The notes: a model not told the origin generated them from the sequence alone. A DNA stretch of 64,000 nucleotides from Stenotrophomonas sp. (GCA_031987425.1 DALZZL010000001.1:9820-73819), one strand, 5' to 3'. Counted from the first letter of the stretch, positions 14,659 through 64,000 are shown. A program made the numbers and translations.

Positions 14659-14883
14659 ATGAAGACGTTGTTCGGCGTGGTCGCGTGGTGCCTGCTGTTC
14701 GTGCTGTGCTGGCCGTTGGCGGTGCTGGCGCTGGTGGCATGGCCGTTGGTGTGGCTGTTGCTGCTGCCGTTCCGGCTGGTCGGCGTCACCTTCTCGGCGT
14801 TGTTCGCTTTCCTCGGCGCGCTGCTGTTCCTGCCGGCGCGGCTGCTGGGCTGGCGGCCGCGCGCGGCCGCCGTGGCGGGCTGA
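14659..14883 (+). CDS. Small hydrophobic Trp-rich membrane protein (74 aa)
   Basis: MKTLFGVVAWCLLFVLCWPLAVLALVAWPLVWLLLLPFRLVGVTFSALFAFLGALLFLPARLLGW has 2-3 predicted TM helices. Strong GAAGGAG RBS at 14646-14652. GC3-rich. No family recognised. Confidence 0.5.
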   Translation: MKTLFGVVAWCLLFVLCWPLAVLALVAWPLVWLLLLPFRLVGVTFSALFAFLGALLFLPARLLGWRPRAAAVAG

Positions 14884-14895
14884 AAGGGCGCGCGC

Positions 14896-15558: not shown

Positions 15559-15602
15559 GGGGCTTCCGGTGGTGGGTGCGCCGGTCGGCGCGTGCCAGGC
15601 TA

Positions 15603-15639
15603 GAATGCGACGAATTCGTCAGGTTTGTTATTCGCATTC
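15603..15639. promoter_or_regulatory. Candidate TetR operator in the divergent OMT/tetR intergenic region
   Basis: Perfect 12-bp palindrome GACGAATTCGTC (15609-15620). It sits inside an 8-bp inverted repeat, GAATGCGA (15603-15610) and TCGCATTC (15632-15639). The site is 11 nt upstream of the TetR ATG. Confidence 0.4.
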
Positions 15640-15649
15640 CCCACCGCCC

Positions 15650-17373: not shown

Positions 17374-18531
17374 TCAGTCGGACCCGGCGGTACGCAGGAC
17401 GGCGTCGAACGCCGGCTTGGGCTGACGCTCGCGGTCGAACAGCAGCGGGTAGTTGGTGCGGCCACGCACCGGGTAGTCGTTCTTCCAAGAGTCGCCGTCG
17501 TGCGCGTTCCAGAACGTGACCCGGGCGATCACCTCGCGCTTGCGCTGGAACAGCGCGAACAGCTCGGCATAACGCTGGGCGAGCCGCTGCTGCATCTGCG
17601 GCGGCAATCCGTCGGGCCAGGGATCGAGCTGGCGACGTGCCTGCGGATCGTCCGGCAGCGTCAGCCGCTGGTCGGCGGGCATGCCGTCGGTGCGCGGCGG
17701 TTGCGGCAGCACGTCGATGTCCAGCTCGGTGATCATCACCTTGACGCCGAGCGCGGCGAAGGTGTCGATGCTGGTCTCGATCTCGGCGATCGACGGGCTC
17801 TCCAGGCCCCAATGGCCCTGCATGCCCACGCCATCCATGCGCAGCCCCGCGCCCTGCAGCATCTTCACCAGGCGCACGATGCCGGCGCGCTTGGCCGGCT
17901 TCTCGGTGTTGAAGTCGTTGTAGTACAGCTCGGTGCCGGGCGCGGCCTGCGCGGCATAGCGATAGGCCTCGCGCAGCAGGCGGTCGCCATCGCCCACGTT
18001 CTTCAGCCACGGGCTTTGCCGGTAGCTGCCGTCCTCGTCGATGACCTCGTTGGCCACGTCCCAGGCCTGGATGCGGCCGGCGTAGTGGCCGGCCACGTGC
18101 TGGATATGATCCTGCAGCACCGCCAATTGCGCGTCGGCATCGTGCGGGCGGCCCTGTGCATCGACGAACATCCAGGCCGGTGTCTGGATATGCCACAGCA
18201 GGTTGTGCCCGACCACGAACATGCCGTGCGCCTTGCCGAACGCGACGAACGCATCGCCCTTGCTGAAGTCGTAGGTGCCCGGGCGCGGATGCACGTTCTC
18301 CGGCTTGAGTTCGTTCTCTGCGGTGATGCTGTTGAACTGCGTCACCACCAGTTGCTGCGAGCGCGCGTCGCGACCGCTGACGATGGCGTCGTTCACCGCT
18401 ACGCCGACCAGGAAATCGTCGCGGAAGGCATCCTTCAAGGTCGTCGGCGGCGGGGCGGCGAGGGCCGGCAACATGGCCAGGCAGGCGGTGACCGCCAGGG
18501 CGAGCAGGGCGGGCGGGGAACGCAAGGTCAT
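17374..18531 (-). CDS. Secreted GH10 endo-1,4-beta-xylanase
   Basis: 385 aa with signal peptide MTLRSPPALLALAVTACLAMLPALAA. GH10 motifs FNSITAENELKP, VANEVIDEDG (acid/base Glu) and ITELDIDV (nucleophile Glu). The ATG overlaps the GH2 stop (ATGA). Confidence 0.92.
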   Translation of the reverse strand: MTLRSPPALLALAVTACLAMLPALAAPPPTTLKDAFRDDFLVGVAVNDAIVSGRDARSQQLVVTQFNSITAENELKPENVHPRPGTYDFSKGDAFVAFGKAHGMFVVGHNLLWHIQTPAWMFVDAQGRPHDADAQLAVLQDHIQHVAGHYAGRIQAWDVANEVIDEDGSYRQSPWLKNVGDGDRLLREAYRYAAQAAPGTELYYNDFNTEKPAKRAGIVRLVKMLQGAGLRMDGVGMQGHWGLESPSIAEIETSIDTFAALGVKVMITELDIDVLPQPPRTDGMPADQRLTLPDDPQARRQLDPWPDGLPPQMQQRLAQRYAELFALFQRKREVIARVTFWNAHDGDSWKNDYPVRGRTNYPLLFDRERQPKPAFDAVLRTAGSD

Positions 18532-50400: not shown

Positions 50401-50486
50401 TGGTGGACGACCTGGGTGAATGGGTGTCGCGGAAGTTCCGCCACCGCTCGTCGCATCCGCACGGTGTGGTCGACGGCCAGAGCTGA
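47403..50486 (+). CDS. RND efflux pump inner-membrane transporter (AcrB/HAE family)
   Basis: 1027 aa. N-terminus MNFSAWAIKRPLPALLVFFVL. Two large periplasmic loops and 12 TM helices. Conserved VGILVDDAIVEIENI motif. Confidence 0.93.
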   Translation: MNFSAWAIKRPLPALLVFFVLCVAGLWGFHQLPVARFPDIAFPMTTVTVTQPGASPSQLEAEVTRKVEDSVATVNNVKRVMSTVSEGVSTTQIEFQLEADLATALDDTRDAVTRIRTDLPQDIQEPVISKVDIGGSLMTYALVAPGMTADEASWFVDRDVSRAMYGVPGVARVTRVGGVQRQVRVDLDPNALLAFGITAGAVSQQLAQIQVERAGGKAELEGAQQTIRTLGTVGDAQALRDYSISLPDGRAVRLSNLAHVTDAAADPAEAALLDGKDVVAFSMSRTRGSSEVKVEAGVHEALDNLKAAHPGIDFRLVTTAIDETHRSYDSSMTMLYEGALLALLVVWLFLRDWRATWVSALVLPLSIIPTFAVMYWFGFTLNMITLLALSVVVGILVDDAIVEIENIVRHLRMGKPPLEAAREAAGEIGNAVIATSLTLAAVFVPVAFMPGIAGKFFREFGWTAATAVLFSLLVARLLTPMMAAYILKPHGEEKGDSRLMRWYLGWVDAALRHRGRTLWIATGLFVASVGLVPFIPKTFIPQSDLGRSNLSLELPPGTRLQETVAVSEHARALLKDMPELKQVYTAVGSVLDLGDPSTTGVADARKATLILDWGVADTRKRDQRELERDARARLADLPGVRVSYVSSEPGNLLQLVLSGDDPQRLQDASTALERDLRGIQGLGSVTSTASLLRPEIQIVPNSARAADLGVATADIAEAARIATAGDYEQRLAKLNLPDRQVPIRVGFAEATLANPALIGQLRVPGRYGPVPLSAVADIDMGSGPSQISRYQRQRNVTLTAELNGRPLGDVMKQVQELPSVKHLPPGVSFLNTGDAEVFVELFIGFLLAMAAGLVCIYMVLLLLFNHALMPVTILAAVPLCAGGAFGALLLTQNMLSLPALIGLLMLIGIATKNSILLVDYAVIAEDEHGLSQHDALVDACRKRAQPIIMTTLAMGAGMMPIALGFAGDSSFRAPMAIAVIGGLITSTLLSLIVIPAAFTVVDDLGEWVSRKFRHRSSHPHGVVDGQS

Positions 50487-50496
50487 CTCGGTGGGA

Positions 50497-50526
50497 CCAT
50501 CGCCACCCGGGGCAGGGTGGCGATGG
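50497..50526 (+). terminator. Stem-loop downstream of the RND gene
   Basis: CCATCGCCACC-cggggcag-GGTGGCGATGG is an 11-bp perfect stem 11 nt after the stop. No T-tract, as is common in high-GC genomes. Confidence 0.5.
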
Positions 50527-50624
50527 ACTCTCAGTAGAAATACCGCAATCAGTCCGGAAAGGTTACTGACGCCAGCGAAGCATCGAAGGCACAAGCTCTA
50601 CCCACCCTTCCGGTGGAGCGTGCC

Positions 50625-52127
50625 ATGCCTGCTGCAAAGAAGCCCAACATCCTGGTCATCTTCGGTGATGACATTGGTATTCCCCAGATCAGCGCCTATA
50701 CGCGCGGGCTGATGGGTTACCAGACCCCGAACATCGACCGCATTGCCAACGAAGGTGCGTTGTTCACCGATTCCTATGGCCAGCAGAGCTGCACCGCCGG
50801 CCGTGCCTCGTTCATTCTGGGCCAGGAGCCTTTCCGCACCGGCCTGCTGACGATCGGCATGCCGGGCGACCCGCACGGCATCGCCGACTGGATGCCGACG
50901 ATTGCCGACGTGCTCAAGACCGCCGGCTATGCGACCGGGCAGTTCGGCAAGAACCACCTGGGTGACCAGGACCAGCACTTGCCGACCAATCACGGATTCG
51001 ACGAATTCTTCGGCAACCTGTACCACCTCAACGCGGAAGAAGAGCCGGAAGGCTACTTCTATCCGAAAGACCCCGCGTTCAAGAAGAAATACGGCCCGCG
51101 TGGCGTGATCCATTCGCATGCTGGTGGCAAGATCGAAGACACCGGCCCGCTCAACAAGAAGCGCATGCCGACCGTGGACGAGGAGTTCCTGGGCGCGGCG
51201 CAGAAGTTCATCGACAAGAGCGTGAAGGACGACAATCCGTTCTTCGTCTGGTTCAACACCACGCGCATGCACGTGTTCACCCACCTCAAGCCGGAGTCGG
51301 ACGGCGTCACCGGCAAGGGTCTGCATGCCGACGGCATGGTGGAACACGATGGACATGTGGGCCAGCTGCTGGACCAGCTCGACAAGCTGGGCGTCGCCGA
51401 CAACACCATCGTGCTGTACACCACCGATAACGGCGCCGAGATCGCGCTGTGGCCGGATGGCGCGATGACGCCGTTCCGCGGCGAGAAGGGTACGACCTGG
51501 GAAGGCGGCATGCGCATCCCGATGATGGCGCGCTGGCCGGGCGTGATCAAACCGGGCACGGCCTACAACGACATCATCTCGCTGATCGACTGGTTCCCGA
51601 CCCTGTGCGCGGCAGCGGGCGTGGATGATGTCGTGGGCAAGATGAGGAAGGGGTTCAAAGCCGGCGGCAAGACCTTCAAGGTACACCTGGATGGCCATGA
51701 CTTCGGGCCGTATTTCCATGGCAAGGACAAGGAAGGTCCGCGCAAGGCGCTGTATTACTTCGACCAGGGCGGCAACCTCAATGCGGTGCGCTACGCGGAC
51801 TGGAAGGTCAGTTTCGCGGTCGCCAGCCACGGCAACATCGCCACCGCCACGCGCTCGGTTCCCGCATGGGCCACGGTCACGAATCTACGCATGGATCCGT
51901 ATGAGCGCGGCCTGGAGGAGGGGGGCGAGGCGATGCGGTTCGTCGGCCAGCAGATGTGGATCCTCGTGCCCATCCAAGGGCTCATCAAGGAGTTCTTCTC
52001 TGACTTTGGCGACTATCCGTACCAGGCTGGCAGCTCGCTCAATGCCGCGGGTATCAACTATGGCCTGCTGCAGCAGCAGGACGCGATGAAGCGGCTGAAG
52101 GAACTGGAGACGATGCGGACCAACTGA
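50625..52127 (+). CDS. Arylsulfatase (type I sulfatase family), no signal peptide
   Basis: 500 aa from MPAAKKPNILVIFGDDIG. Active-site region QQSCTAGRASFILG (C-x-A-x-R rather than C-x-P-x-R). Motifs GQFGKNHLGD and YTTDNGAE. GGTGGAG lies 6 nt upstream of the ATG at 50625. Confidence 0.88.
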   Translation: MPAAKKPNILVIFGDDIGIPQISAYTRGLMGYQTPNIDRIANEGALFTDSYGQQSCTAGRASFILGQEPFRTGLLTIGMPGDPHGIADWMPTIADVLKTAGYATGQFGKNHLGDQDQHLPTNHGFDEFFGNLYHLNAEEEPEGYFYPKDPAFKKKYGPRGVIHSHAGGKIEDTGPLNKKRMPTVDEEFLGAAQKFIDKSVKDDNPFFVWFNTTRMHVFTHLKPESDGVTGKGLHADGMVEHDGHVGQLLDQLDKLGVADNTIVLYTTDNGAEIALWPDGAMTPFRGEKGTTWEGGMRIPMMARWPGVIKPGTAYNDIISLIDWFPTLCAAAGVDDVVGKMRKGFKAGGKTFKVHLDGHDFGPYFHGKDKEGPRKALYYFDQGGNLNAVRYADWKVSFAVASHGNIATATRSVPAWATVTNLRMDPYERGLEEGGEAMRFVGQQMWILVPIQGLIKEFFSDFGDYPYQAGSSLNAAGINYGLLQQQDAMKRLKELETMRTN

Positions 52128-52139
52128 GCCGCAGCGAGG

Positions 52140-52173
52140 CTGCCCCGCGCTTGATCGATCAGGCGCGGGGCAG
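52140..52173. terminator. Stem-loop between the convergent sulfatase and marC genes
   Basis: CTGCCCCGCGC-ttgatcgatcag-GCGCGGGGCAG is an 11-bp perfect stem. The right arm overlaps the last marC codons. Confidence 0.4.
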
Positions 52174-52833
52174 GGTGGCGATCAGTTCCGATATGCCGAG
52201 CCAGCCGATCTGTACGCCGATGCACAGGATTACGAACGCCAGCAGCCGCAGCGTGACCTGGGTGCCGGTGTTGCCGAGCACGCGCCGTAGCCGCCAGGCA
52301 TGACGCATGCACAGGTAGATCAGCACGCATAGTGCAAGCAGTGCGGTGCCCGCCGCGGCGATGTGAACGGGTAGCGGGCCTTCCCGCGGCGAGCTGGTAC
52401 CCAAGGCGATCGCCACCGCGATGGAGCCGGGGCCGACGGTGATCGGCAAGGTCAGCGGATAGAACAGCTGCGAACGCAGCGATTCCTCTTCGGCATCGGA
52501 CGCGGCCTCGGCCACGCCGGCGGCGACGCTGTGGTCGATCTGCGCCGGGGCATTGAGCAGCTTCCAGCCGGTGGCGGCGATCACCGCGCCACCGGCCAGG
52601 CGCAGCACCGGGATCGAGATGCCGAAGAACGACAGCACGTAGGCGCCGATGCCGATTGAGGCGGCCAGCATCAGCAGGCTGTTGAGGGCGATGCCCCGGG
52701 CCAGCCAGGCGCGCTGGCGTGGGCTGGCATCCGGCACCAGGCCGAGCACGATCAAGGCCGAGCCGGGCGGGTTCACGACCGGCAACAGGCCGGTGAAGAC
52801 CAGCAGGAAGATCTGGGTGAAGTCATTCCACAT
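52159..52833 (-). CDS. MarC-family (UPF0056) integral membrane protein
   Basis: 224 aa from MWNDFTQIFLLVFTGLLPVVNPPGSA, a typical MarC N-terminus. 6 TM helices. ATG at 52831-52833 is preceded by GGAGG. The track ORF is over-extended to 53181. Confidence 0.88.
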   Translation of the reverse strand: MWNDFTQIFLLVFTGLLPVVNPPGSALIVLGLVPDASPRQRAWLARGIALNSLLMLAASIGIGAYVLSFFGISIPVLRLAGGAVIAATGWKLLNAPAQIDHSVAAGVAEAASDAEEESLRSQLFYPLTLPITVGPGSIAVAIALGTSSPREGPLPVHIAAAGTALLALCVLIYLCMRHAWRLRRVLGNTGTQVTLRLLAFVILCIGVQIGWLGISELIATLPRA

Positions 52834-53185
52834 AGCGCCTCCGTGGCGGTTGCGTGCCACGCTTTGAGGTTGGGGAGCGTATGCGATCAGGGTAGGGTGG
52901 ATGGGGCTGCCCTGCCATTGATGAGCCTGGATCGTAGGCGCTCCGTGCCGTCCCCGTGTTTCAATGTGGGGTTGTGCGAGGGCTGCGCGCCATCGGCTAT
53001 ACGCCGACTTGTCGGTAGGGCCACGCCATCCTGAACGAGACGTATCATGGGGAGAGTCCGCCATAAAGCGAGCAGTGGATAGGGGGACGGAATTCGACTT
53101 CGCCTCGCACTGGATATCCGAGCCGGTTGGCTTTTTTTGGGCGGATTCCGAATAAGATGTCAATAATTCGCATGGAGGCAAAAAG

Positions 53186-53659
53186 GTGATTCAAAAGACC
53201 CGGTGTCCAGTAGCAGCATCCGTCTTCGTAAGCATCTTGTTAGTCGCGGGCTGTGGTCGAAATCCTGCTGAGCTGGAACCAGCCGACAGCCAGCAATCCA
53301 CCAAGAAAAAGCTGGAGATCATTGAGGTTGTGGCACGACCGGTCGGCGGGTCAGGCGACTTGTCGCTACGCCCAGCGTTTCCCGGCGATGTTGTTGAGAT
53401 CGCGATAAAGTCCAGAGGGCACACGGCCGCCGCGGATTTGTCCGTCAAGATGATCTCGCTCGCCGAAGGTGTCGCGGTGGCTACGCGGGATGTTCGCTTG
53501 AATGCCACCAGTGCGGCTACGCCCAGCGTTCGTTTCGAGCCATCTCCCGAGTGGAAACCCGGCCGCTATCTATTTGAGATCAGCTTGGACGGAAAGCTCG
53601 CGGGTACGCAAGAAATCGAGATATTCCCTGTTGAGATGGCGGAGCACGCAAAGCCTTGA
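53186..53659 (+). CDS. Hypothetical lipoprotein (beta-sandwich-like)
   Basis: 157 aa starting at a GTG at 53186, with GGAGG 7 nt upstream. Lipobox LLVAGC. No family recognised. Lies in the low-GC block. Confidence 0.6.
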   Translation: MIQKTRCPVAASVFVSILLVAGCGRNPAELEPADSQQSTKKKLEIIEVVARPVGGSGDLSLRPAFPGDVVEIAIKSRGHTAAADLSVKMISLAEGVAVATRDVRLNATSAATPSVRFEPSPEWKPGRYLFEISLDGKLAGTQEIEIFPVEMAEHAKP

Positions 53660-53673
53660 TGTCGGTCGCTCGA

Positions 53674-54699
53674 TCAAGGGCTGTCCAGTGTGCGCAGAAA
53701 AGCCGAAAGCTGATGTTGTTCTTCAACCGTTAACTTGATGGGCTGGCCACTGGCCAGCCCGCGGTAGTAGAGCTCGTGTTCGATAGCGGCTTCGAGCGTA
53801 GCTATGCTTCCATCATGCATATATGGCGCAGTGCGCCCTACATTGCGCAGGCTGGGAGTGCGGAACGCTCCAAGATCCTGTGGCGTTGAGGTGACCGCGA
53901 AGCGACCTAACTCTGCAATGTCCGGGTCCGCAAGGATGACGCGTCCGATGGGATCGCCTCCGGCGCGTGCTGCCTCAAGCCTTTGCTGCAGGTTCCTTAT
54001 ATTTCCGGCGATCTTCTCGAAGCCCACACTGGCGTGATGGAATTGGCCATCCGTGAATGCAGGACGTTTGCCTGATATGAGATGGCAGCTGCTGCATTGT
54101 GCCTTGCCGAGGAATAGCTGCAGCCCGCGCTGTGCCTTGCCGTCGAGTGAGCCGTAGTCCTTTCGTGCATATGCTTGATCAAACGCGCTTTCCCCCGTGT
54201 TAAGGGCCTTCAGATAGCTCGCAAGTGCGGCGGCGACCTCTGCTTCATCGATCCGTTTACCGAAGGCGGCGCGATACTCAGATTGCGCGCCGATTCGTGC
54301 TAGCACGGACTTCATGCTGTCGTGGCCCATCTCTCGCGGATTGATGAAGGGCTGCATGACAGCTGCGTCAAGGGTGCTTTCGCGCCCATCCCAAAATTGG
54401 GGGCCGTTTGCCGACACTCCTAGCAGACTCGGTGCATTGCGTGTCCCTGAGCGATTAAAGGCCCCCACGGACACCGGACGACCATCCGTGAAGGCAAGCC
54501 TGGAAATGTGACAGCTCGCACAACTAGTTTGGCCGTCAGCCCCCAATCGTGGGTCGTTGAAAAGCTGTGCGCCAACCTGGACACGCGCTTCCGTTCGCGC
54601 ATCCGGCCACTGGGCGCCACGTTCGCATGAAACTAGCGGCAGCAAGAACAACCCAATACCCGCGAATTTTGCAGCGATAGTTCCAATCCCTAGTTGCAT
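53674..54699 (-). CDS. Di-haem cytochrome c peroxidase (CCP/MauG family), lipoprotein
   Basis: 341 aa from MQLGIGTIAAKFAGIGLFLLPLVSC (lipobox). Two CxxCH haem motifs (CASCH, CSSCH). FWDGRESTLD and PSLRNV...PYMHDGS motifs. ATG at 54697-54699. The track start at 54801 is less likely. Confidence 0.86.
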   Translation of the reverse strand: MQLGIGTIAAKFAGIGLFLLPLVSCERGAQWPDARTEARVQVGAQLFNDPRLGADGQTSCASCHISRLAFTDGRPVSVGAFNRSGTRNAPSLLGVSANGPQFWDGRESTLDAAVMQPFINPREMGHDSMKSVLARIGAQSEYRAAFGKRIDEAEVAAALASYLKALNTGESAFDQAYARKDYGSLDGKAQRGLQLFLGKAQCSSCHLISGKRPAFTDGQFHHASVGFEKIAGNIRNLQQRLEAARAGGDPIGRVILADPDIAELGRFAVTSTPQDLGAFRTPSLRNVGRTAPYMHDGSIATLEAAIEHELYYRGLASGQPIKLTVEEQHQLSAFLRTLDSP

Positions 54700-54820
54700 T
54701 TTTCCGTCTGCCTTGACAGCACCCCTGGGCGAACTGTAAATCGTCGGGCTTGGATGCGCCACGCTGGCGCCAGCGTTCCACGGAGCGGCCATGGGCCGCA
54801 TGGCTCAGGGGTGAGCTGCT

Positions 54821-57800
54821 ATGGAAGGAATCGTGCGGTGGGGTGCCGACGTTCGTCGGCGCCTGTTCGGCAATCGTGGCAAGGTCACGCAGGTATGGGC
54901 CCGTCTCTGCTTGTGGGGTGTATGCGTTTTCGCGCTTGCGATGACTGGCGCCGCCTCGGCAACCCGATACGTCTATGACGCCAATGGACGCCTGGTCGCA
55001 GTTACTAACGACGCAGGTGAGTCGGCGCGCTATGTCTACGACGTGATGGGGAATATTCTCCAGGTCGATCGACTGGCAGCTGGGGAGTTGGCGCTGTTCT
55101 CCTTCTCCCCGGAGCGCGGAGTGTCGGGCACCCAGGTACGACTACAGGGGCAGGGCTTCAGTCCAATTCCGGCGTCCAATGCCGTCCGTTTTGGTGGCGC
55201 TGCTGCAACGGTTACGACCGCTTCGAGCACCGATCTGCTTGTAATTGTGCCGCCAGGGGCGACCACTGGGCCCATTTCGATAGCGGTGGGCTCGCAGTCG
55301 GTCTCCAGTACCAAGGCATTCATCGTCGATGAGAGCGACCTGGCGCCTAGCATTGACGGATTCTCGCCGGCCGTTGGGGTGGCGGGCGACAGCATTACGA
55401 TCACCGGTCGGTCGCTGTATCCACTCAACCACCAAACTGCCGTGCGTGTGGGGGGGCGTACAAGCGCCATCAGCAGTTCGGGCGACACGTCGCTGACGTT
55501 CACGGTGCCATCCGGCGCCAATACTGGAAAAGTCTCGGTTAGCACTCCCTACGGCATGGCCGTAAGCACGCAAGATCTGGTGGTTCTGCCCAGCGGCATC
55601 AGTCCAGGGGAGATCACCTCCAGCACACGTGTACTGCCGGACGCGCCTGCGGGTAATTTTTCCACTCAGGCCACCGGTGAACGGGCGGCGGTGATGGTCG
55701 ACGCGCAACTGGGCGAGTACCTGGATGTCCAGTTCTCGTCGATCAGTGTGGCCAGCTTGGCTTATTCGGTCTATGACCCATCCAATCGCTTGGTTGTCAG
55801 CGGCACGGCGACCCCGGCCAACCCAAGTCTGCTATTGCCGCCGGCCGACAGTGCTGGCACGTATCTGCTGTTGATAAAGCCAGTACAGGGCCCAGCAAGC
55901 TGGAACCTGTCGATTGAGAGGAGTAAGTCCATCACGGAAGATGGCGACTTCTCTTCGCTCGCCACAACCGTCAACGGCCAAAAGAAGCGCCTCATCTTCT
56001 ACGCATCGCGAGATCAACGTCTGGGTCTCGGCGTGGTCGAACCCTCGTTCTCTTCAGGAACCTACATGTCGATCGCGGTGCTAAGCCGCGACGGAACGTC
56101 GGTCACGAGTGGATCCTGCTATGCGTCATACGCCGGGTGCCACTTCAACATCCGCGCTCCTCAGGCGAGCACGTACAGTATCGTATTCACGCCGCAGAGC
56201 GGCCAGACCTTCCAGACGAAAGCGATACTGAGCAACGATCTGTATATCGCATTACAGCGGGAGGTGCCTCTTGACCTGACGCTGGCCAGGCGCGGACAGA
56301 ATGGTCGATTGACATTTTCCGCGCAAGCGGGCGATTCGATTGCTCTCTCGATATTTGCACAGACCACTTTCCCTGCCGGTCGTGCTGTCAACTACAGCAT
56401 CTATAAGCCTGACGGCACATTGTTGTCAGCGGGTGATGTTTTTACTTACCAGATATTCAACTTCCCCAGCCTTCCGCAGAGCGGCGACTACTTCGTCTTT
56501 GTAGATGCCGACTACGGCGCAACCATGGGCTCCCGGGTCGTGCTGATGGACAGCGCCAACAACAATCAGCCGATTGACGGGAACTTTGGCCAATTCGCGG
56601 CTCCCTTGGGGGGGCAATCGGCTTATTTCAATTTCGATGTCACCGAGGCCGATCAGCGTCTGGGGTTGGGCATCAGTGACTTGGTCCTAAGTTCTGGCAC
56701 TTATGTCAATGCCTATGTGTATCGGCCCGACGGAACTACGCTGGTTAGCACGACGTGCACGCAATCCGATGGTGGTTGTGATCTGAATGTCAGGGCGCCG
56801 GTCGTGGGTCGCTATAGCGTCATGGTGAAGCCAGCCAGTGCCAGCCAGACGATGCAGTTCAAGATCACGCTATCCAATGATCTACGCACGGATATCGCGC
56901 GCGAATCCCCGCTGCAGCTGCAGATCAGTCGACGGGGCCAGAATGCTCGGCTGTTCTTTGACGCCCAGGCAGGAGAGACGCTTGCTCTGCAAGTTGCTGG
57001 AACGTCGACTTTTCCAGCCGGAAAATCAGTCACATATCAAGTCGTGAAGCCGGATGGCACCGTCTTCAAAGAGGCCAGCACAAGTTCCTTCTCTACTGTG
57101 CTGTTGTCCTCGTTGCCTTCCGACGGGAAGTACATGGTTTTCGTTGATCCGTCCGACGGAGAGACGTTGGATGTCAGTCTCACACTGACTGATGGGCGCC
57201 AATCGGGCATGGTCATTGATGGCGCTTCGGGAGAGTACGTCGCGCAGATTCCCGGGCATCCTGCCTTCCTCACGTTCGATGCCAGTGAGGTGGATCAACG
57301 TCTGGGTCTTGCAGTTCATGACATACAGCTAAGTACGGGCACGTATGTCAACGTTTACCTTTACCGGCCTGATGGGACGTCCTTGACTTCTGGCACCTGC
57401 TATCAAGCGAGCGGATGTGAGTTCAACATCCGGGCCGCTGCAGTTGGTCGGTACAGCGTCGTAGTTTCACCGCAGGCCTCGTCTAGCGCGATAAGTCTTA
57501 AGGCGACGTTGTCCAACGACATGCGCGGTGTGCTAGCGCGGGAGACGCCAACTAGTCTCGTCATACCGCGTTATGGCCAGAACATGCGCGCGTCATTTGT
57601 TGCGGCGGCGGGAGAGAATCTGGCGCTTCAGATCACGGGCCAGGCTACGGAGTCCAGTGGCCGGTCCGTGACGTACTCGATCTACAAGCCCGATGGCACG
57701 CTGTTGACGAGTGCTGCCCCGTCCGCCTATGCGGACTTGCGAATGATCAATCTGCCGGCAAGCGGCGAGTATCTACTGTTCATTGATCCGACATATGGCG

Positions 57801-60376
57801 TGAAGGCACAGGCGCGCTTGCTGCTCACTGCGGGGAATGGAGACGCGCCTGTCGTTAACGGTGACCAAGGGGGCGTCACTACCACGGTTGCAGGTCAGGC
57901 CACATTTACAACATTTCCCGTTACCGAGGTTGGACAACAACTGGGAATTGGCATAAGTGATCTGACGGCGAGTTCAGGCTCCTACGTATCAATGTACGTC
58001 TATCGACCGAATGGCAGCACGGTTGGAAGCGTCAACTGCAATCTTTCGAACCAGGGATGCGACGCCAACTTCAGTGCGCCGGAAGTGGGGAACTACAGCA
58101 TCGTCGTGGCGCCTCAGAACGCCACGCAGACCATGAGCTACAAGGTCACTGTCAGTAATGATCTTCGTGTAGTGCTTCCGCGCGAGACCACTTTTGCGCT
58201 GGGTATCCCGCGCCGAGGGCAGAACGCGCGCCTGGCTTTCAGCGCCCAAGCTGGCGAGACCATGGCGTTGAAGCTGTCCGGCCAGGCGACGGTGCCGGCC
58301 GGAAAGAGCGTTTCCTATCAGATATACAAGCCAGACGGAACCTCGCTCACTAGCGGCGGCGGCACCAGCAACGACGTCATCAATATGACCACTCTGCCTG
58401 CGAGCGGCGAGTATCAGGTATTCGTGGACCCTGCCTATGGGGCGACGGTCAATGCGCAGCTTGTACTCACCAGCGGTACTGACAGTGGGGCTACTGTTGA
58501 TGGCGCGGTCGGCGATTTGTCTACGGTGTTGCCGGGGCAGTCTGCCTACGTGACTTTCCAGGCGAGCGCTGGTCAGCAGATCGGATTGGGGATCAGTGAC
58601 CTTGCGGTGTCTTCGGGCAGCTACGTGAGCGTTTACACCTACCGGCCTGGAGGAGTGACCGCGGGAAGTGGCACTTGCTCTGTCAGCAATGGTGGATGCG
58701 CCTTCAACATCAACGCTGTTGAAACGGGCATATATAGCGTGGTGGTTACGCCGCAAAGTGCCAGCCAAACGATGAGCTTCAAGGCGACGATTTCGCAAGA
58801 TCTGGTCGCTACGCTGGAACGCGATGCGCCCTTCGATCTAGTGCTTCCTCGCCGTGGGCAGAATCAGCGCCTGAACTTCAATGGCCAGGCCGGCGAGGCG
58901 TTGTCATTGCAGGTGGCTGGACAAACGTCCGTCCCCTCCGGGCGTTCCGTCTACTACCGTGTCTACAAGCCAGATGGTTCGGCACTTAACAGCTTCAGTA
59001 CCACCAATCTCGGGGCCATGGATATGAGGTTGCCTGTCACTGGCACCTATCAGGTACTGGTGGAGGGTGGGAGCGGTGAGAGCGTGGTCGCGCGCGTCAC
59101 ACTGTCGACAGGTGACACCCAGCAGGTCGGCGGAAGTCCAGGCAGTCTTCAGACCGCATTCGGCGGGCAACCGGTGTACGCCACTTTCCAGGCGGCCGCC
59201 GGCCAGCAACTGGGCATCGGAATCTACGATCTCGTCCTGTCCACCGGGACGAGTCTGGGGGCGGCCGTCTATCGCCCCAACGGCACTAGCGCGACAACCG
59301 CCACCTGCAGCACTTCCAATCAAGGTTGCAAGCTGAGCCTGACTGCTACCGACGCCGGGATCTACAGCGTGGTGGTTACGCCCCAGACGGCAAACCAGAC
59401 CATGTCGTTCAAGCTGGCCATCTCGCCAGATCTGACGGGCACGCTTCAGAAGGACACTCCGGTGGACATCAACATTGCGCGAAGAGGGCAAAACGCGCGA
59501 TTCACCTATGCCGGACAGGCGGGGGAGTGGCTGTCTCTCCAAGTGGCCGGCCAGATGACGGTACCAGCGGGTAAAGTGGTCTATTACAGAATTTATCGCC
59601 CGGAAGGCACGCTGCTTATCAGCGGCAACATAACCGGAATGGGTACGGTCAATCCCACAGCGTTGCCGGCTACGGGCGCGTATACCGTCCTGGTTGATTC
59701 TGGCTATGGCGAAACAGTCAGCTCGCGCGTCACCATCGCCAGTGGCGCTAGCGCTTTGCAGCTTGACGGTGCCTCGACTTCGGTGGCGACCTCTTTTGGT
59801 GGGCAGCCCGTATTTTTGGCTTTCAATGCAACCGCGGGTCAGCGTCTGGGGGTGGGCCTTACCGAAGTGCAGGCGTCCGCGGGTACCTATTTCGGCGCAG
59901 CGGTTTACCGTCCGGATGGATCCTCTACATCAGGCAACTGTTATCCACAGAATTATGGTTGTGAGTTCAACACAACGGCCAATGTGACGGGCACGTATCG
60001 GATCGTGGTAACGCCGGCGTTGTCTACCCAGTTGATAGGCTTCAGGGCCACAGTGTCGACTGACCTTGAGAAGACGTTGCAGCGCGGCGAGCGGACGGTA
60101 ATCGAGTTGTCCCGCGAGGGGCAGAATGGCTGGATTGCCTTCAATGGGGTCGCCGGAGAGGCGCCGTCGATATTGATCGCAGACCCTAGTACATGGCCTT
60201 CCGGCGGCAGCACAAACTACACGGTGTACCGCCCAGATGGCGGGACAGTGGCGTCCACTACCTCAGTTGTCGCCAAGACTTGGCAGCTTCCCAGCCTGCC
60301 ATCGACGGGCGAGTATCGAATCTTCGTGAGTCCGGCAGCTGCTTTGCCGTTGACCGTGGCGTTAACCGTGCAGTAA
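54821..60376 (+). CDS. Giant secreted repeat protein: signal peptide, one YD-repeat pair, 2 IPT/TIG domains, about 15 PPC-like beta-sandwich domains
   Basis: 1851-aa uninterrupted ORF. Signal-like segment LCLWGVCVFALAMTGAASA. YD motif RYVYDANGRLVAVTNDAGESARYVYDVMGNILQV. Two TIG-like segments (FSPERGVSGTQVRLQGQGF..., FSPAVGVAGDSITITGRSL...). Then seven ~213-aa two-domain units recognisable by DQRLGLGISD...YVYRPDGT...C-x5-7-C and RRGQNARL.F..QAGE...YKPDGT...LP.SGEY.VFVDP. Confidence 0.9.
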   Translation: MEGIVRWGADVRRRLFGNRGKVTQVWARLCLWGVCVFALAMTGAASATRYVYDANGRLVAVTNDAGESARYVYDVMGNILQVDRLAAGELALFSFSPERGVSGTQVRLQGQGFSPIPASNAVRFGGAAATVTTASSTDLLVIVPPGATTGPISIAVGSQSVSSTKAFIVDESDLAPSIDGFSPAVGVAGDSITITGRSLYPLNHQTAVRVGGRTSAISSSGDTSLTFTVPSGANTGKVSVSTPYGMAVSTQDLVVLPSGISPGEITSSTRVLPDAPAGNFSTQATGERAAVMVDAQLGEYLDVQFSSISVASLAYSVYDPSNRLVVSGTATPANPSLLLPPADSAGTYLLLIKPVQGPASWNLSIERSKSITEDGDFSSLATTVNGQKKRLIFYASRDQRLGLGVVEPSFSSGTYMSIAVLSRDGTSVTSGSCYASYAGCHFNIRAPQASTYSIVFTPQSGQTFQTKAILSNDLYIALQREVPLDLTLARRGQNGRLTFSAQAGDSIALSIFAQTTFPAGRAVNYSIYKPDGTLLSAGDVFTYQIFNFPSLPQSGDYFVFVDADYGATMGSRVVLMDSANNNQPIDGNFGQFAAPLGGQSAYFNFDVTEADQRLGLGISDLVLSSGTYVNAYVYRPDGTTLVSTTCTQSDGGCDLNVRAPVVGRYSVMVKPASASQTMQFKITLSNDLRTDIARESPLQLQISRRGQNARLFFDAQAGETLALQVAGTSTFPAGKSVTYQVVKPDGTVFKEASTSSFSTVLLSSLPSDGKYMVFVDPSDGETLDVSLTLTDGRQSGMVIDGASGEYVAQIPGHPAFLTFDASEVDQRLGLAVHDIQLSTGTYVNVYLYRPDGTSLTSGTCYQASGCEFNIRAAAVGRYSVVVSPQASSSAISLKATLSNDMRGVLARETPTSLVIPRYGQNMRASFVAAAGENLALQITGQATESSGRSVTYSIYKPDGTLLTSAAPSAYADLRMINLPASGEYLLFIDPTYGVKAQARLLLTAGNGDAPVVNGDQGGVTTTVAGQATFTTFPVTEVGQQLGIGISDLTASSGSYVSMYVYRPNGSTVGSVNCNLSNQGCDANFSAPEVGNYSIVVAPQNATQTMSYKVTVSNDLRVVLPRETTFALGIPRRGQNARLAFSAQAGETMALKLSGQATVPAGKSVSYQIYKPDGTSLTSGGGTSNDVINMTTLPASGEYQVFVDPAYGATVNAQLVLTSGTDSGATVDGAVGDLSTVLPGQSAYVTFQASAGQQIGLGISDLAVSSGSYVSVYTYRPGGVTAGSGTCSVSNGGCAFNINAVETGIYSVVVTPQSASQTMSFKATISQDLVATLERDAPFDLVLPRRGQNQRLNFNGQAGEALSLQVAGQTSVPSGRSVYYRVYKPDGSALNSFSTTNLGAMDMRLPVTGTYQVLVEGGSGESVVARVTLSTGDTQQVGGSPGSLQTAFGGQPVYATFQAAAGQQLGIGIYDLVLSTGTSLGAAVYRPNGTSATTATCSTSNQGCKLSLTATDAGIYSVVVTPQTANQTMSFKLAISPDLTGTLQKDTPVDINIARRGQNARFTYAGQAGEWLSLQVAGQMTVPAGKVVYYRIYRPEGTLLISGNITGMGTVNPTALPATGAYTVLVDSGYGETVSSRVTIASGASALQLDGASTSVATSFGGQPVFLAFNATAGQRLGVGLTEVQASAGTYFGAAVYRPDGSSTSGNCYPQNYGCEFNTTANVTGTYRIVVTPALSTQLIGFRATVSTDLEKTLQRGERTVIELSREGQNGWIAFNGVAGEAPSILIADPSTWPSGGSTNYTVYRPDGGTVASTTSVVAKTWQLPSLPSTGEYRIFVSPAAALPLTVALTVQ
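54962..55069 (+). other. Isolated YD/RHS repeat pair at the mature N-terminus of the giant protein
   Basis: aa 48-83, TRYVYDANGRLVAVTNDAGESARYVYDVMGNILQVD, matches the YD-repeat consensus (Y-x-Y-D-x-x-G-R/N-L) twice. Confidence 0.75.
55091..55591 (+). other. Two IPT/TIG-like Ig-fold domains
   Basis: aa 91-169 and 176-257. The pattern F-S-P-x-x-G-x-x-G-x-x-V/I-x-L/I-x-G-x-x-F/L ... V-x-F/V-G-G ... L-x-V/F-x-V-P ... G-x-V/I-S-V/I is typical of TIG domains. Assigned by eye. Confidence 0.65.
55628..60373 (+). repeat. Coding tandem array: one leading B-type domain plus seven (A+B) units of PPC-like domains, period ~213 aa (~640 nt)
   Basis: The RRGQN-type motif recurs at aa ~491, 705, 918 and 1131, and three more times after that. 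The LG(L/I)G...Y(V/L)YRP(D/N)G motif also occurs seven times. Units are diverged, with no long identical DNA stretches seen. Confidence 0.8.
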
Positions 60377-60433
60377 CGAATTCGTGTTTGCCGTCGGATG
60401 GCGGCATCGAGCGCAAAGGAATGGAGCAAGCGC

Positions 60434-63400
60434 ATGGCTAGCAAGCGGAAGGGCTGGATGTCCGTCACGGCGGGACTGCTGTTGGGGCTGGTGGCCGCGG
60501 CTGCGGCGTCCAATCACGTGTCGATCCCAACGTCAGGGCAATCATCTGAAGGAGGCCAGCTGACCGAGGCCAGGGCCGCCAGGGCAGTGCCCGGCACCGA
60601 GCGATATCTGCGTTTGCAGGGCGACCAGACGATTTACTTGTCTTCCAATGGCACGGAGCTGCGGCTGCAGACCTCCGCCAAGTCGAACCGCGGTCGAAGC
60701 TGGCTGCTGCCCACGGTGCGCCGAAATGCTAGCTTGACGTTGCTTCCTGACGGACGTGTGCTGGTCTGGGGGGGGCGAGATGCCGCGGGCAACATGCAGG
60801 CAGGGGGGCTGTGGTTCGATCCGGAACTGCGTGCCCTGGATCCAGCGGATCGTCTGCCCATGAGCGCAAGAAGCGACCATACGGCCACGGTGCTCACCGA
60901 TGGCCGTGTGTTGTTCGCTGGCGGCGTTGGCAACCCACACGCCTACGAATTGTGGAATCCTGATACTGGCCTTTGGAATGCCGTCGGTGAAGGCATGGCA
61001 CCGGCAAGCGGGCATCGGGCCGTATTGCAGGCAGATGGTCAGGTGCGGCTCTTGGGCGCCGGACGGGCGAGGGTCGGGGGGCGAGAGGACCTGCTCTTCA
61101 ATCCTGAGGGCGACGTGGTCGTTGCGGCGACGGATACACGAGGGAAGACCGTGCCGCTTGGCCTGGCCGGTTCCGTGCCGGAGCAAGGCGCGAATAACGT
61201 TGCGATCAACGCTCGGCTAGCGATTCGCTTTTCCGAACCGGTGCGTCTGAGTGATCTCAATGAAGCCACCTTTACCTTGTTTGGTCCCGGTGGCGCGGCG
61301 CCGGTTCGTGTCGTTGCAGTAGAGGATGGTCGGCTCGCTTTCGTCACCCCCCGTCGGGAGCTCTTTCCCGATGCTGCCTATACCCTGATGGTCGATGGCG
61401 TTACGAGCCAGAGCGGCGAGCGTCTCCCATTGATAACGCTGGATTTCCGAACGGCTGCGATTGCCGCTCCACAGAGCGCCTTGGGTGCTGACAAATCGAC
61501 AAGCAGCGGTGGGCAGTCCGTCGATCTCGCGGGAAAGGAAGGCTACTGCGGGACCAAATTGAGAACGCTTGTACTCTGCCAGGAGCAGGGTGAGATGCGT
61601 GATGGCGTGTGGACGCCCGGCAAGGACAATGCGGGCGAGAATTGGCGAGTTCCTGGTCGTCAGCCCGAACTGATGCCGCTCGGATTCATGCCTGAGCTTT
61701 TCAAGGCCTGGGGAAAGGCCGCATTGACCGGATCCATCCGGCGCGCTGATGGGCAGCCCGTGGCTGGTGTTGCCGTCAATGTGGGTGACAGCTTTGGCAA
61801 GACCAACGCGGAAGGGCAGTTCCTTATCTACGACGTTCCTTCGGGCAGACAGAAGCTATACGTAGACGGCACGGCCGCCAATGGGCCAGGCGTTGAATAC
61901 GGGCAATTTGTCATCGGTGTAGACGTGCAGCCAGGAGCGCTGACACAGGTGCCGTTCACTATGTGGCTGCCCCGCATCACTGCGCGCGACAAGATCAGGA
62001 TTCCGTCGCCGACAACGGAGGACATGGTTCTGAAGCATCCCGACCTGCCCGGCATGGAACTCCATATTCCGGCGGGCACGGTGATCCGGGATCACAAGGG
62101 AAAGATCGTGACCGAAGTCGCCATTGTGCCGACACCGGTCAATCGCTCACCGTACCCGTTGCCTACCAATTTCCCGATGTACTTTACCTTGCAGCCGGGT
62201 GGTGCCGTCCTGCAGGGCCTTACGCCAGAAGCAGGAAGGGGCGCTCGCGTCTATTACCCCAACTACGATCATCATCCCGCAGGTACTGCCGCGGACTTCT
62301 GGCTGTACGACGCAATGGAGGGCTGGCGCGTATACGGCCAGGGCAGGGTGAATGACGCGGAGACCCAGTTCGTGCCGGAGGATGGCGTGGCGCTGCGGGA
62401 AGTCGTGACATTTGGCGCGGCGGTGAGCCCCAGTGACCCGGCGCCGGAGGAGGGTAAGCCACCGGAGCCCCAGGAGTGTGGGGAGTGCAATGCAGGCACT
62501 GGTAACAGCGCCTCCGCGGGCGATCCCATTGATCTTAAAACCGGCCGATTCACCTATCAGGAAACCGACATCGCCATTAGTGATGTCGTCCCCATCACCG
62601 TTGGCCGAAACTACCGTCCCAGTGACCGCGTCAAGCGTGAGTTCGGATACGGCACAGCCGCGGATTTTGCGTACCGTCTCTCCATGAACGGCACAAGCTA
62701 CAGCGAGCTTCAGTTGGTACTGCCGAATGGATCGCCGCTAGTGTTCAAGCAGATATCCGGCACTGGAGCTTACGGTGTATGGCGATATGACGGAAAGCAA
62801 GCGATCTCGGGGGCAACCCTGTACTCGGACAATGTTGACGGCTACAAGTACTATTTAAGGCTGCGCGATGGCTCGCAGATGGTGTTCGAACCCCATAGCC
62901 CGAATCGGCTGCTATGGAGCCAGGATCGTTTCGGAAACCGGGTCGATTATGTCTACGATGCTGGGCGCGTAAGCCGCATCATCTCGCCCAACAGCCGATA
63001 CATCGACCTCGACTACGACACCCAGAACCGAATCATCTCGGCCAAGGACATGCTTGGGTCGACTTGGCGCTACGAGTACAACGCCCAGGGCCTTCTCGCA
63101 AAGGTCATCTATCCGGATGAAACCTTTCGTCGGTACGAGTATCAGAGCTGGGGAAGTAGTTCGACGCTTCGGCATCGCCTGTCAGCCATCTTCGATCAGC
63201 GAGGAAATCGCGTTCTGCTCAATGAGTACGAGCAGACTGGTACGGGCGCCGCGACCACGACCACAGGGCGCGTCATACGCCAGACGCTAGCGGATGGAGC
63301 GGTTTACCAAATTCAGTACGACCACATAGATGGAAGCACGACAGGCACCCTGGTAACGCACCCGGATGGCAGTCAGCGACGTGTGGTGTTTGGAGATGGG

Positions 63401-64000
63401 ATGTATCCGATTTCGGATACGCTGGCCTATGGGACGCCGCTGGCGCAGGAGTATCGGTTCGAGCGCGATGCGGAAGGAAGGATGACCGCACGGATCGATC
63501 CGATCGGGCGGCGGACGGAGTATGAGTACGATGGTTTTGGGCAACTCGTGGGGACCACCGTCCTGGCCGGAACCAGCCGAGCAGTCGAGACGAGAATCGC
63601 CTATACCGTGGAAGGCCAGGTGGCGTCGCTCACCGATCCGCTCAACCGCACCGTAACGCTGGAGTATGCCCAGGGCTGCCTGTCACGCGTCACCAATGCG
63701 CTGGGCAAGGCGAGTACGTTCACCTGCACATCTTCTGGCCTCCCGGAATCGGTAACCGACCCGCTATCCAATACCAGCGTGTCCTACTACGTCGGCGCGG
63801 ATCTGGTGACCCTAAGCGACCCTCTCGGGCGCGACATCAGCTTTCGCTACGACGCCCTCGGGCGTCAGGTCGCCGCGCAAGGGCCCGATGGCCAAATGGC
63901 GCGTGCCGAGTACAACAGCCAAAACCAACTCGTGAAAAACGTCGGCCCGGACGGAGGAACCAGCGAGCTGGCCTACGATGCCAACGGTAATATGACCGAC
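60434..64000 (+). CDS. Sec-signal RHS/YD-repeat protein with teneurin-like N-terminal domains (partial, 3' end outside the window)
   Basis: An open frame of 1189 codons with no stop runs from the ATG at 60434 to the window end. It is therefore missing from the ORF track. GGAG lies 7 nt upstream. Signal peptide MASKRKGWMSVTAGLLLGLVAAAAAS. Kelch-like repeats (LLPDGRVLVWGGRD, VLTDGRVLFAGGVG). Ig-like segment (NARLAIRFSEPV...TFTLFG). CarboxypepD_reg/TTR-like segment (LTGSIRRADGQPVAGVAVNV...NAEGQFLIYDVPSG). RHS core entry GDPIDLKTGRFTYQETDIAISDVVPITVGRNYRPSD at 62516, then many YD repeats (DRFGNRVDYVYDAGRV, WRYEYNAQGLL, RTEYEYDGFGQL, ISFRYDALGRQV). An alternative in-frame ATG lies at 60398. Confidence 0.9.
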   Translation, partial: MASKRKGWMSVTAGLLLGLVAAAAASNHVSIPTSGQSSEGGQLTEARAARAVPGTERYLRLQGDQTIYLSSNGTELRLQTSAKSNRGRSWLLPTVRRNASLTLLPDGRVLVWGGRDAAGNMQAGGLWFDPELRALDPADRLPMSARSDHTATVLTDGRVLFAGGVGNPHAYELWNPDTGLWNAVGEGMAPASGHRAVLQADGQVRLLGAGRARVGGREDLLFNPEGDVVVAATDTRGKTVPLGLAGSVPEQGANNVAINARLAIRFSEPVRLSDLNEATFTLFGPGGAAPVRVVAVEDGRLAFVTPRRELFPDAAYTLMVDGVTSQSGERLPLITLDFRTAAIAAPQSALGADKSTSSGGQSVDLAGKEGYCGTKLRTLVLCQEQGEMRDGVWTPGKDNAGENWRVPGRQPELMPLGFMPELFKAWGKAALTGSIRRADGQPVAGVAVNVGDSFGKTNAEGQFLIYDVPSGRQKLYVDGTAANGPGVEYGQFVIGVDVQPGALTQVPFTMWLPRITARDKIRIPSPTTEDMVLKHPDLPGMELHIPAGTVIRDHKGKIVTEVAIVPTPVNRSPYPLPTNFPMYFTLQPGGAVLQGLTPEAGRGARVYYPNYDHHPAGTAADFWLYDAMEGWRVYGQGRVNDAETQFVPEDGVALREVVTFGAAVSPSDPAPEEGKPPEPQECGECNAGTGNSASAGDPIDLKTGRFTYQETDIAISDVVPITVGRNYRPSDRVKREFGYGTAADFAYRLSMNGTSYSELQLVLPNGSPLVFKQISGTGAYGVWRYDGKQAISGATLYSDNVDGYKYYLRLRDGSQMVFEPHSPNRLLWSQDRFGNRVDYVYDAGRVSRIISPNSRYIDLDYDTQNRIISAKDMLGSTWRYEYNAQGLLAKVIYPDETFRRYEYQSWGSSSTLRHRLSAIFDQRGNRVLLNEYEQTGTGAATTTTGRVIRQTLADGAVYQIQYDHIDGSTTGTLVTHPDGSQRRVVFGDGMYPISDTLAYGTPLAQEYRFERDAEGRMTARIDPIGRRTEYEYDGFGQLVGTTVLAGTSRAVETRIAYTVEGQVASLTDPLNRTVTLEYAQGCLSRVTNALGKASTFTCTSSGLPESVTDPLSNTSVSYYVGADLVTLSDPLGRDISFRYDALGRQVAAQGPDGQMARAEYNSQNQLVKNVGPDGGTSELAYDANGNMTD

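Follow-up and report, generated by a model that had tools for sequence, protein, structure and literature searches.

In a 64,000-nt stretch of Stenotrophomonas sp. DNA (GCA_031987425.1 DALZZL010000001.1:9820-73819), here referred to as the window, an RHS gene starting at position 60434 stays open up to the last nucleotide. We read this gene, with a probability of about 0.75, as encoding a 1779-amino acid (aa) Sec-exported RHS/YD-repeat polymorphic toxin directed against other bacteria and not reliant on a type VI secretion system (T6SS), as judged from profile searches and predicted structures. Its C-terminal cargo is predicted to be a toxin of the Tlde1/Tox-LD-peptidase family, with an L,D-transpeptidase fold and conserved catalytic residues, and an Imm57 immunity gene follows. 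The toxin-immunity pairing and the RHS class are already known; what is out of the ordinary is the conserved chassis of Kelch, immunoglobulin (Ig)-like and transthyretin (TTR)-like domains and a further domain, here named domain X, together with a partner protein encoded next to it. What is understood so far of RHS toxins in Gram-negative bacteria concerns almost exclusively T6SS cargo and components of Tc toxins. Here we find the same cage, but in place of the T6SS adaptor there is a Sec signal with a conserved Kelch-Ig-TTR-X module.

The complete RHS gene, its cage and its cargo

The gene is real and is truncated by the edge of the window. When open-ended open reading frames (ORFs) were allowed, the + strand frame 60398..64000 was listed as '3open' with 1201 aa, and translation from 60434 gave 1189 residues with zero stops up to the window end. 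Thus, the initial annotation was right that 1189 codons stay open from 60434 and that the ORF had gone unlisted for want of a stop, and the in-frame stop that it feared to have misread is not present. ATG 60434 is a likelier start than 60398, since GGAG is found 7 nt upstream of it and the relatives begin at the equivalent position, with the pattern MxSxxxxWMSV.

A locus on a 101-kb public contig (L010) is identical to window positions 50398-64000 at 13603/13603 nt and is therefore a valid extension of the window. There the RHS gene runs 1773 nt beyond the window end, up to a stop codon at L010 15374-15376, and adds the 590 residues absent from the window, that is the remaining shell, the Rhs-associated core and a 148-aa C-terminal domain. 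In the protein search the complete product is P0003 (1779 aa), or P0122 (1791 aa) if the earlier ATG is used; an exact look-up returned no gene call for the 1779-aa product and one, on L010, for the 1791-aa variant starting at ATG 60398. The core motif, the toxin domain and the immunity gene, the last two of which had been expected beyond position 64000, were all detected in this extension, with the Tlde1-like toxin preceding Imm57.

Domain calls were made from Pfam and NCBIfam profile searches and from an AlphaFold2 model of aa 1-1189 (41 aligned sequences, pLDDT 84.7, pTM 0.70), and the features are collected in Table 1. The expected entry motif DPIDLKTGRF, with YD repeats after it, was confirmed: the DUF6531 plug begins at GDPIDLKTGRF, and directly after it the model shows the YD repeats as regular beta-hairpins (pLDDT 90-96). 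The part of the shell within the window matched RHS_repeat at 3e-36 and YD_repeat_2x at 8e-27; in the full-length protein, where the shell extends to aa 1555 on L010, the values were 3.7e-58 (in 12 stretches) and 1.9e-49. The Rhs-associated core model TIGR03696 was matched over its full length at aa 1556-1631 (9e-26), and the match ends exactly at DPHGL. The core reads YYYRARFYDP...RFISEDPIGL-x18-DPHGL followed by A, an intact aspartyl autoprotease with two DPxGL motifs; since DPIGL-x18-DPHGL is intact, the last 148 residues should be released after L1631 and kept in the cage. The YD repeats are thus predicted to form a closed cage, sealed at its N-terminal end by DUF6531 and at its C-terminal end by the aspartyl protease plug of the Rhs core. 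Within the DUF6531 plug, D697 is conserved in at least 90% of the sequences and P698 is invariant. These residues correspond to D288-P289, the N-terminal autocleavage site of Rhs1 (PMC8636562), and an N-terminal cleavage is possible.

A HMMER search of 1.84 billion representative proteins found 133 relatives of the 148-aa domain, all of them C-terminal and mostly located right after the RHS core motif. Across 73 toxin sequences C3, C14, G31, R85, H91, S107, G109 and C110 are invariant. H91...S107-x-G109-C110 represents the His...Ser-x-Gly-Cys motif that marks enzymes with an L,D-transpeptidase fold, and in P0003 this catalytic motif consists of H1722 and S1738-E-G-C1741. The Pfam family Tlde1_dom (PF10908) was matched by 57/73 relatives at E<=1e-3, the best at 1.7e-13. 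By sequence, the domain had no match in PDB, where it was placed by fold search alone: the top 35 Foldseek matches of its AlphaFold2 model (pLDDT 94.6) were all L,D-transpeptidases, with a probability of up to 1.0. Salmonella Tlde1 shares with it Tlde1_dom, the L,D-transpeptidase fold and H...(S/T)xGC, and Tlde1 acts in the periplasm, where its immunity protein is also located (PMC9638812). On the other hand, Tlde1 is a stand-alone T6SS cargo paired with Tldi1, whereas the toxin described here is a predicted caged RHS tip paired with Imm57.

The Imm57 protein bears a signal peptide of its own, MKSCLAGSAMLVALMFPGVAQS. The public gene call begins at the internal ATG 15424 and loses this signal, which is restored if translation starts at ATG 15382; a 182-aa Imm57 homologue at a second locus (L016) agrees with the longer form. 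Zhang, Iyer, Aravind et al. 2012 listed Tox-LD-peptidase, with conserved H, S and C, together with Imm16 or Imm57, and with RHS repeats and export by the type II secretion system (T2SS), T6SS or TcdB-TcaC (PMC3482391); because it is listed there, the toxin-Imm57 pair is a textbook pairing. L016 carries the pair again, with 61% identity for the toxin and 36% for Imm57, on a chassis of only 46% identity. The GC content is 0.68 for the core genome, 0.60 for the RHS gene and 0.52 for the toxin and immunity region, and this stepwise decrease fits a tip acquired by recombination.

The family of the RHS protein comprises, at E<=1e-3, no fewer than 285 clusters out of 8000 scored candidates, with 32-79% identity across the whole query. 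Its members are mostly from Xanthomonadaceae, and the named genera are Stenotrophomonas, Xanthomonas, Lysobacter, Luteimonas, Pseudoxanthomonas and Luteibacter; the family is common in the first three of these and their relatives, including plant-associated and clinically relevant genera. In 112 relatives the sequence conservation breaks off at DPxGL, and the Pfam families found at the C-terminus vary between WHH, colicin DNase, MafB19 deaminase, Tox-REase-9, ART-HYD1, Tae4, SHH, GH-E, PLA2, HINT and others. As many different tips, with nucleases, deaminases, ADP-ribosyltransferases and amidases among them, are carried on the conserved N-terminal 1630 residues, these residues appear to be a chassis for general delivery.

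The signal peptide is predicted to carry the RHS protein across the inner membrane. It is proposed that the toxin would act in the periplasm of the target by cutting or mis-editing the stem peptides of peptidoglycan, by analogy with Salmonella Tlde1 (PMC9638812). Imm57, probably located in the periplasm, would shield the producer and its kin, and its signal peptide is an indirect support for toxicity in that compartment. The locus offers a handy entry point to the family, as the cargo should act in the periplasm, where it would be easy to assay, and the predicted immunity partner is clear.

The N-terminal module and the conserved neighbours

The initial annotation had put a classical signal peptide in the place of a PAAR, prePAAR or VgrG-binding N-terminus and had arranged Kelch-like blades, an Ig-like domain, a TTR-like domain and a ~170-aa beta-rich segment (aa ~500-670) ahead of the YD repeats. 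This order was borne out, as profile matches to Kelch, Big_5, CarboxypepD_reg, DUF6531 and YD were found near the expected positions, and the beta-rich segment was recovered as the 153-aa domain X. The signal peptide, MASKRKGWMSVTAGLLLGLVAAAAAS, has a basic n-region, a 15-residue hydrophobic core (h-region) and an Ala-rich end, with no lipobox. An equivalent feature is present in 102/117 full-length relatives, and a lipobox in 2 relatives. No PAAR, prePAAR, VgrG-type or Eag signature was detected at E<=1 in a Pfam search with the full RHS protein.

In the Kelch region, Kelch_4 was matched at 8e-6 (aa 93-210), along with Kelch_6 and Kelch_KLHDC2, and the family profile matched Kelch and galactose oxidase proteins in PDB at 3e-16. 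The model has 16 strands in aa 57-231 (pLDDT ~80-90), a count which suggests four blades. The Big_5 domain scored 2e-10 and 41.7 bits against a cut-off of 23.6, and was modelled as an Ig beta-sandwich at aa 244-340 (pLDDT ~87-91), followed by a disordered linker at aa 346-377. For the TTR-like sandwich (pLDDT ~90), the PF13620 match of the query itself at aa 431-508 gave 22.8-27 bits, under the cut-off of 32.3; CarboxypepD_reg was matched by 19/19 family members, the best at 6.7e-8, and the teneurin model TTR_TEN1-4 weakly by 4/19.

Domain X is the best-conserved stretch of the whole RHS protein, with a mean identity of 0.59 vs 0.46 for the shell; in close and distant relatives the values are 0.88 and 0.44, compared to 0.63 and 0.37 for the shell. 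The domain is constant in length (150-158 aa across relatives), it was modelled with a pLDDT of 78-91, and a 30-residue coil connects it to the plug. By sequence, it had no relatives in Pfam or PDB, the full-length bacterial teneurin-like protein (TLP) 9pt5 included. In PDB, aa 371-843 used as a single phmmer query yielded a chance-level match to the TTR-like part of EMC7 only, a profile of aa 372-696 recovered the TTR-like domain but no relative of domain X from PDB and Pfam, and when the 1189-aa model was compared by fold with a viral library, generic Kelch and repeat matches only were returned. Domain X is a candidate docking or receptor-binding module. Together, the Kelch, Ig, TTR and X domains, lying outside the cage, may serve in toxin display or in receptor binding.

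The gene upstream of the RHS gene encodes a secreted protein, referred to here as the partner, with Pfam matches to RHS_repeat (aa 52-82), TIG and PPC. A homologue adjoins the RHS gene in 7/7 loci, usually upstream and once downstream. The length of the partner varies from 420 to 1851 aa over the seven loci, and its conserved N-terminus consists of a signal peptide followed by YVYDANGRLV...ARYVYDxxGN. On a contig of a Stenotrophomonas maltophilia metagenome-assembled genome (MAG), the equivalent place is taken by a 1872-aa ORF whose domains were not scanned. The partner and RHS genes are in the same reading frame in L013 and L014 and in different frames in L011, a pattern that may be due to chance. 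The partner is perhaps an obligate one, serving as a stalk or an anchor, and may dock by its lone YD hairpin.

The gene divergent from that of the partner encodes a MauG/CCP-like di-haem peroxidase, which is found at the same position in 5/7 loci with 44-51% identity. In distant relatives (32-35% identity; L018 13247-14509 and L017 5934-7979) the partner is only 420-681 aa long, in one of them downstream of the RHS gene, and no MauG-like gene was seen near the RHS gene in these two loci; it is therefore more likely that the link between the RHS gene and the partner predates the link with the peroxidase. At the edge of the cassette lies a gene for a small lipoprotein; homologues of the small protein (28-43% identity) occupy the same place in 3/4 other loci compared (L011, L013 and L016), the lipobox being noted for the window copy. 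The flanking genes outside the cassette differ between all genomes.

Table 1. Features of the RHS protein and of its neighbouring genes. Positions refer to the window unless L010 is given; residues are those of the RHS protein.
Feature	Position	Residues	Strand	Basis
DUF6531 plug/seal of the N-terminal end of the RHS cage (PF20148)	62519..62746	696-771	+	Pfam 6e-12
YD/RHS shell, first part	62747..64000	772-1189	+	Pfam, AlphaFold2, Foldseek
Predicted toxin domain, 148 aa	L010 14930-15373	1632-1779	+	HMMER, Pfam Tlde1_dom, AlphaFold2/Foldseek
Imm57 immunity gene, start 6 nt after RHS stop	L010 15382-15921			Imm57 1e-26, 93 bits
Sec type I signal peptide	60434..60511	1-26	+	Sequence features, AlphaFold2 helix aa 6-23
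Kelch-type beta-propeller region, probably about four blades	60602..61126	57-231	+	Pfam, PDB profile, AlphaFold2
Big_5 bacterial Ig-like domain (PF13205)	61148..61453	239-340	+	Pfam, AlphaFold2
TTR-like/CarboxypepD_reg beta-sandwich (PF13620)	61721..61969	430-512	+	Pfam in relatives, AlphaFold2
Domain X, beta-rich, 153 aa	61970..62428	513-665	+	Conservation, AlphaFold2; no family
Partner, 1851-aa secreted protein, N-terminal YD-repeat pair then TIG/Ig-like repeats	54821..60376		+	Pfam
MauG/CCP-like di-haem peroxidase, divergent from partner	53674..54801		-	PF03150 1.8e-43
Small lipoprotein, 157 aa, lipobox LVAGC, cassette edge	53186..53659		+	No Pfam family

The Sec-dependent ('T2SS') RHS toxins of Zhang et al. 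have the same toxin class, Imm57, RHS repeats and a signal-peptide export category in common with this locus. That catalogue is computational, with 0 occurrences of Kelch, and no account of a Kelch-Ig-TTR-X architecture, the partner or the MauG-like gene was found in it (PMC3482391). In the literature searched, no description was found of a conserved Kelch-Ig-TTR-X chassis with a YD-plus-TIG partner. A dedicated apparatus is suggested, though not proven, by domain X together with the partner and the peroxidase. Perhaps, and we put this forward only tentatively as an extension of our reading that is less likely than not, the RHS protein, the partner, the MauG-like peroxidase and the small lipoprotein form an undescribed Sec-dependent, T6SS-independent apparatus which displays or delivers RHS toxins. 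In such an apparatus, the lone YD hairpin of the partner would dock on the cage, domain X or the Kelch region to give a long stalk bearing the toxin cage, and the peroxidase would mature or cross-link the assembly.

Export route and alternative readings

For a secreted protein of ~190 kDa, passage across the outer membrane of the producer, display, and entry of the cargo into the target all call for an explanation. Bacillus subtilis has a YD/RHS toxin with a signal peptide, WapA, whose C-terminal tip is variable and which has a cognate immunity gene; it serves contact-dependent competition and is anchored in the wall of a single-membrane bacterium. Unlike WapA, the present protein has an outer membrane to cross as well, and its N-terminal domains are different and it has a partner protein. 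No T6SS, two-partner-secretion or usher genes were found within 8-10 kb of the RHS gene in the seven loci, and the ORFs sampled elsewhere in the window include no T6SS genes; they encode glycoside hydrolases, a TonB-dependent receptor, a resistance-nodulation-division (RND) efflux pump, a thiamine pyrophosphate (TPP) enzyme and a CHAT-domain protein.

Several points weigh against a Sec-exported toxin that acts on other bacteria. The cassette contains no transporter gene, and we know of no outer-membrane route for such proteins in Gram-negative producers. The nuclease tips of sister proteins need entry into the cytoplasm, so that crossing of the outer membrane alone cannot be the whole story of the family. 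In addition, the toxin sequence itself scored 27.5 bits with Tlde1_dom (E 4.6e-6), just under the cut-off of 30.1, and its fold match is moderate (TM ~0.5, E ~1e-3). A further point is XadM of Xanthomonas oryzae, which papers that cite it (PMC3911176 and PMC6027264) describe as an Rhs-family protein of the cell surface, required for attachment, for the formation of biofilm and for virulence. As for the outer membrane of the producer, it would possibly be crossed by T2SS, as Zhang et al. assume.

XadM, which may belong to the RHS family described here and is a candidate only, leads to the view that the main role of the protein is that of an XadM-type surface adhesin or biofilm factor. Its Kelch, Ig and TTR domains, together with the TIG-repeat partner, would then attach to surfaces, hosts or kin, and the toxin tip would be of secondary importance or have a part in kin recognition. 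The N-terminal domains are indeed typical adhesion modules, the partner is a long Ig-like repeat protein, and Raoelijaona et al. favour roles in cell-cell interaction for bacterial TLPs. However, the intact autoprotease motif, the conserved catalytic residues, the closely coupled immunity gene and the family-wide swapping of tips show selection on killing and immunity, and we consider a mainly adhesive function unlikely. Adhesion and killing are, moreover, mutually compatible.

The initial annotation had compared the succession of TTR-like domain, plug-like segment and YD shell to the core of teneurins. Part of this comparison stands, as Ig and TTR-like domains are located ahead of the plug as in bacterial TLPs, but the plug is DUF6531, there is no NHL and the shell is nearest to that of T6SS Rhs proteins. 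Nor was aa 513-665 shown to be a plug-like segment, as it is a separate conserved domain, domain X, and the plug lies at aa 696-771. TLPs are defined by an FN-plug, NHL and a YD-shell, and BiTLP has the order BIG-TTR-TIP-FN-plug-NHL-YD-CTD (PMC13018210); Raoelijaona et al. 2026 regarded TLPs as the lineage giving rise to animal teneurins. With BiTLP (9PT5/9IFO) and animal teneurins, taken as one group, the RHS protein shares Sec export, Ig and TTR-like domains ahead of a YD shell with a plug, a polymorphic ~15 kDa C-terminal toxin and an adjacent immunity gene. Precomputed TEN_YD-shell matches, along with the weak teneurin TTR matches mentioned above, also speak for a true bacterial TLP in the sense of Raoelijaona et al. 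Against this, no NHL propeller was detected by profile between the plug and the YD shell, the sole propeller being the Kelch region, and a profile of aa 372-696 had no match at E<=10 to the TIP/FN-plug region of full-length BiTLP 9pt5. The TTR-like domain upstream of the plug is a likeness of fold class and not of specific kinship, and the TLP paper names no Xanthomonadaceae (PMC13018210). A true TLP is thus very improbable.

The cage itself pointed in the same direction. The family profile scored 4e-108 to 1e-100 with T6SS Rhs proteins, compared to 4e-76 with TLP 9pt5, for which the best stretch is in the shell, and 8e-26 with teneurin-4; it was aligned with RhsA 7q97 from profile position 684 and also with the cores of the 8qj series. 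In the structure comparison that had been suggested at the outset, the model was best matched by T6SS Rhs cages, with the core 8qja first (1.5e-28) and 7pq5 at 3.1 A over 507 columns, while Tc BC structures reached 1e-14 and TLP and teneurins aligned only at a root-mean-square deviation (rmsd) of >30 A. By its predicted cage, the RHS protein belongs to the classical Rhs lineage. The teneurin-like order is probably a partial, modular resemblance; as Ig, TTR, plug and YD follow each other here on a cage of the T6SS Rhs lineage, the order appears to be a recurring modular solution and no mark of teneurin ancestry.

A Cys pair, CGEC, was observed just before the plug (window 62477-62488, aa 682-685), and the toxin domain has conserved non-catalytic cysteines at aa 1634, 1645, 1670, 1724 and 1737. 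In BiTLP a disulfide joins the plug region to the C-terminal fragment, and a similar tether through CGEC and the toxin cysteines is conceivable by analogy.

The T6SS Rhs effectors (P. laumondii Rhs1/Tre23 7PQ5, P. protegens RhsA 7Q97 and Advenella/Salmonella bongori 8QJA-D) are the closest known proteins by sequence and fold, and have in common with the RHS protein the DUF6531 plug, a three-layer YD cage, an aspartyl protease with two DPxGL motifs, a small encapsulated C-terminal toxin and an N-terminal D-P motif. This similarity of cage and plug, the first description of Tlde1-type toxins as T6SS effectors (PMC9638812) and the presence of a T6SS with a PAAR-Rhs effector in some Stenotrophomonas (PMC13340143) would agree with a T6SS cargo whose adaptor is encoded elsewhere in the genome. 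Unlike those effectors, the RHS protein lacks not only PAAR and prePAAR but also VgrG, a transmembrane segment and an Eag-binding region, has no T6SS genes nearby, and carries instead a Sec signal, ~670 aa of Kelch-Ig-TTR-X and an adjacent YD-plus-TIG partner gene. The retention of the Sec signal across the relatives is at odds with cytoplasmic loading, and the partner and the immunity protein have signal peptides as well. We regard a T6SS cargo as even less probable than a TLP. Least probable of all is a Tc-toxin-like (ABC-type) BC component against eukaryotic cells with the giant neighbour as its A component, which is suggested by an RHS cage with a beta-propeller, a large upstream gene and the Tc BC structures among the fold matches, but is contradicted by the lack of an SpvB domain in Pfam searches, by a propeller that is N-terminal and not inserted in the cage, by a neighbour made of Ig/TIG repeats and not an alpha-helical TcA, by the predicted peptidoglycan-targeting cargo with its periplasmic immunity protein, and by Tc fold matches far weaker than those to Rhs.

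Downstream DNA and further loci

At L016, an orphan RHS C-terminal fragment (14395-15576, 393 aa, with YD repeats) was identified downstream of the Tlde1-Imm57 pair, and it is followed by a small ORF at 15586-15990, as is typical of a displaced toxin-immunity cassette. In L010, two pairs of direct repeats were found downstream of the immunity gene in a stretch with a GC content of 0.57, ~2.9-6.2 kb past the window end: 16501-16557 and 19725-19781 (57 nt, 81% identity), and 17987-18033 and 19062-19108 (47 nt, 96% identity). Within the stretch lie a phage-like ORF (DUF3653) and, on the minus strand, several small ORFs that have signal peptides or a lipobox; these may be remnants of mobile DNA or orphan immunity genes.

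In the S. maltophilia MAG UBA4555 the cassette is present in tandem duplicate on one contig (L001 9851-15184, 15304-20823 and 20857-24303; L002 4326-9944 and 10001-15240). An RHS gene of 1727 aa is followed by giant ORFs of 1839 and 1872 aa and then by a second RHS gene, which is split by frameshifts into three ORFs. The split copy could be a pseudogene or an error of the MAG assembly. The tip of the intact copy is a different one, Cys-rich and of ~100 aa.

Elsewhere in the window, a 766-aa ORF at 10488-12788 (+) has a C-terminal CHAT (caspase-like) domain (3e-11), preceded by 480 N-terminal aa with no family match.

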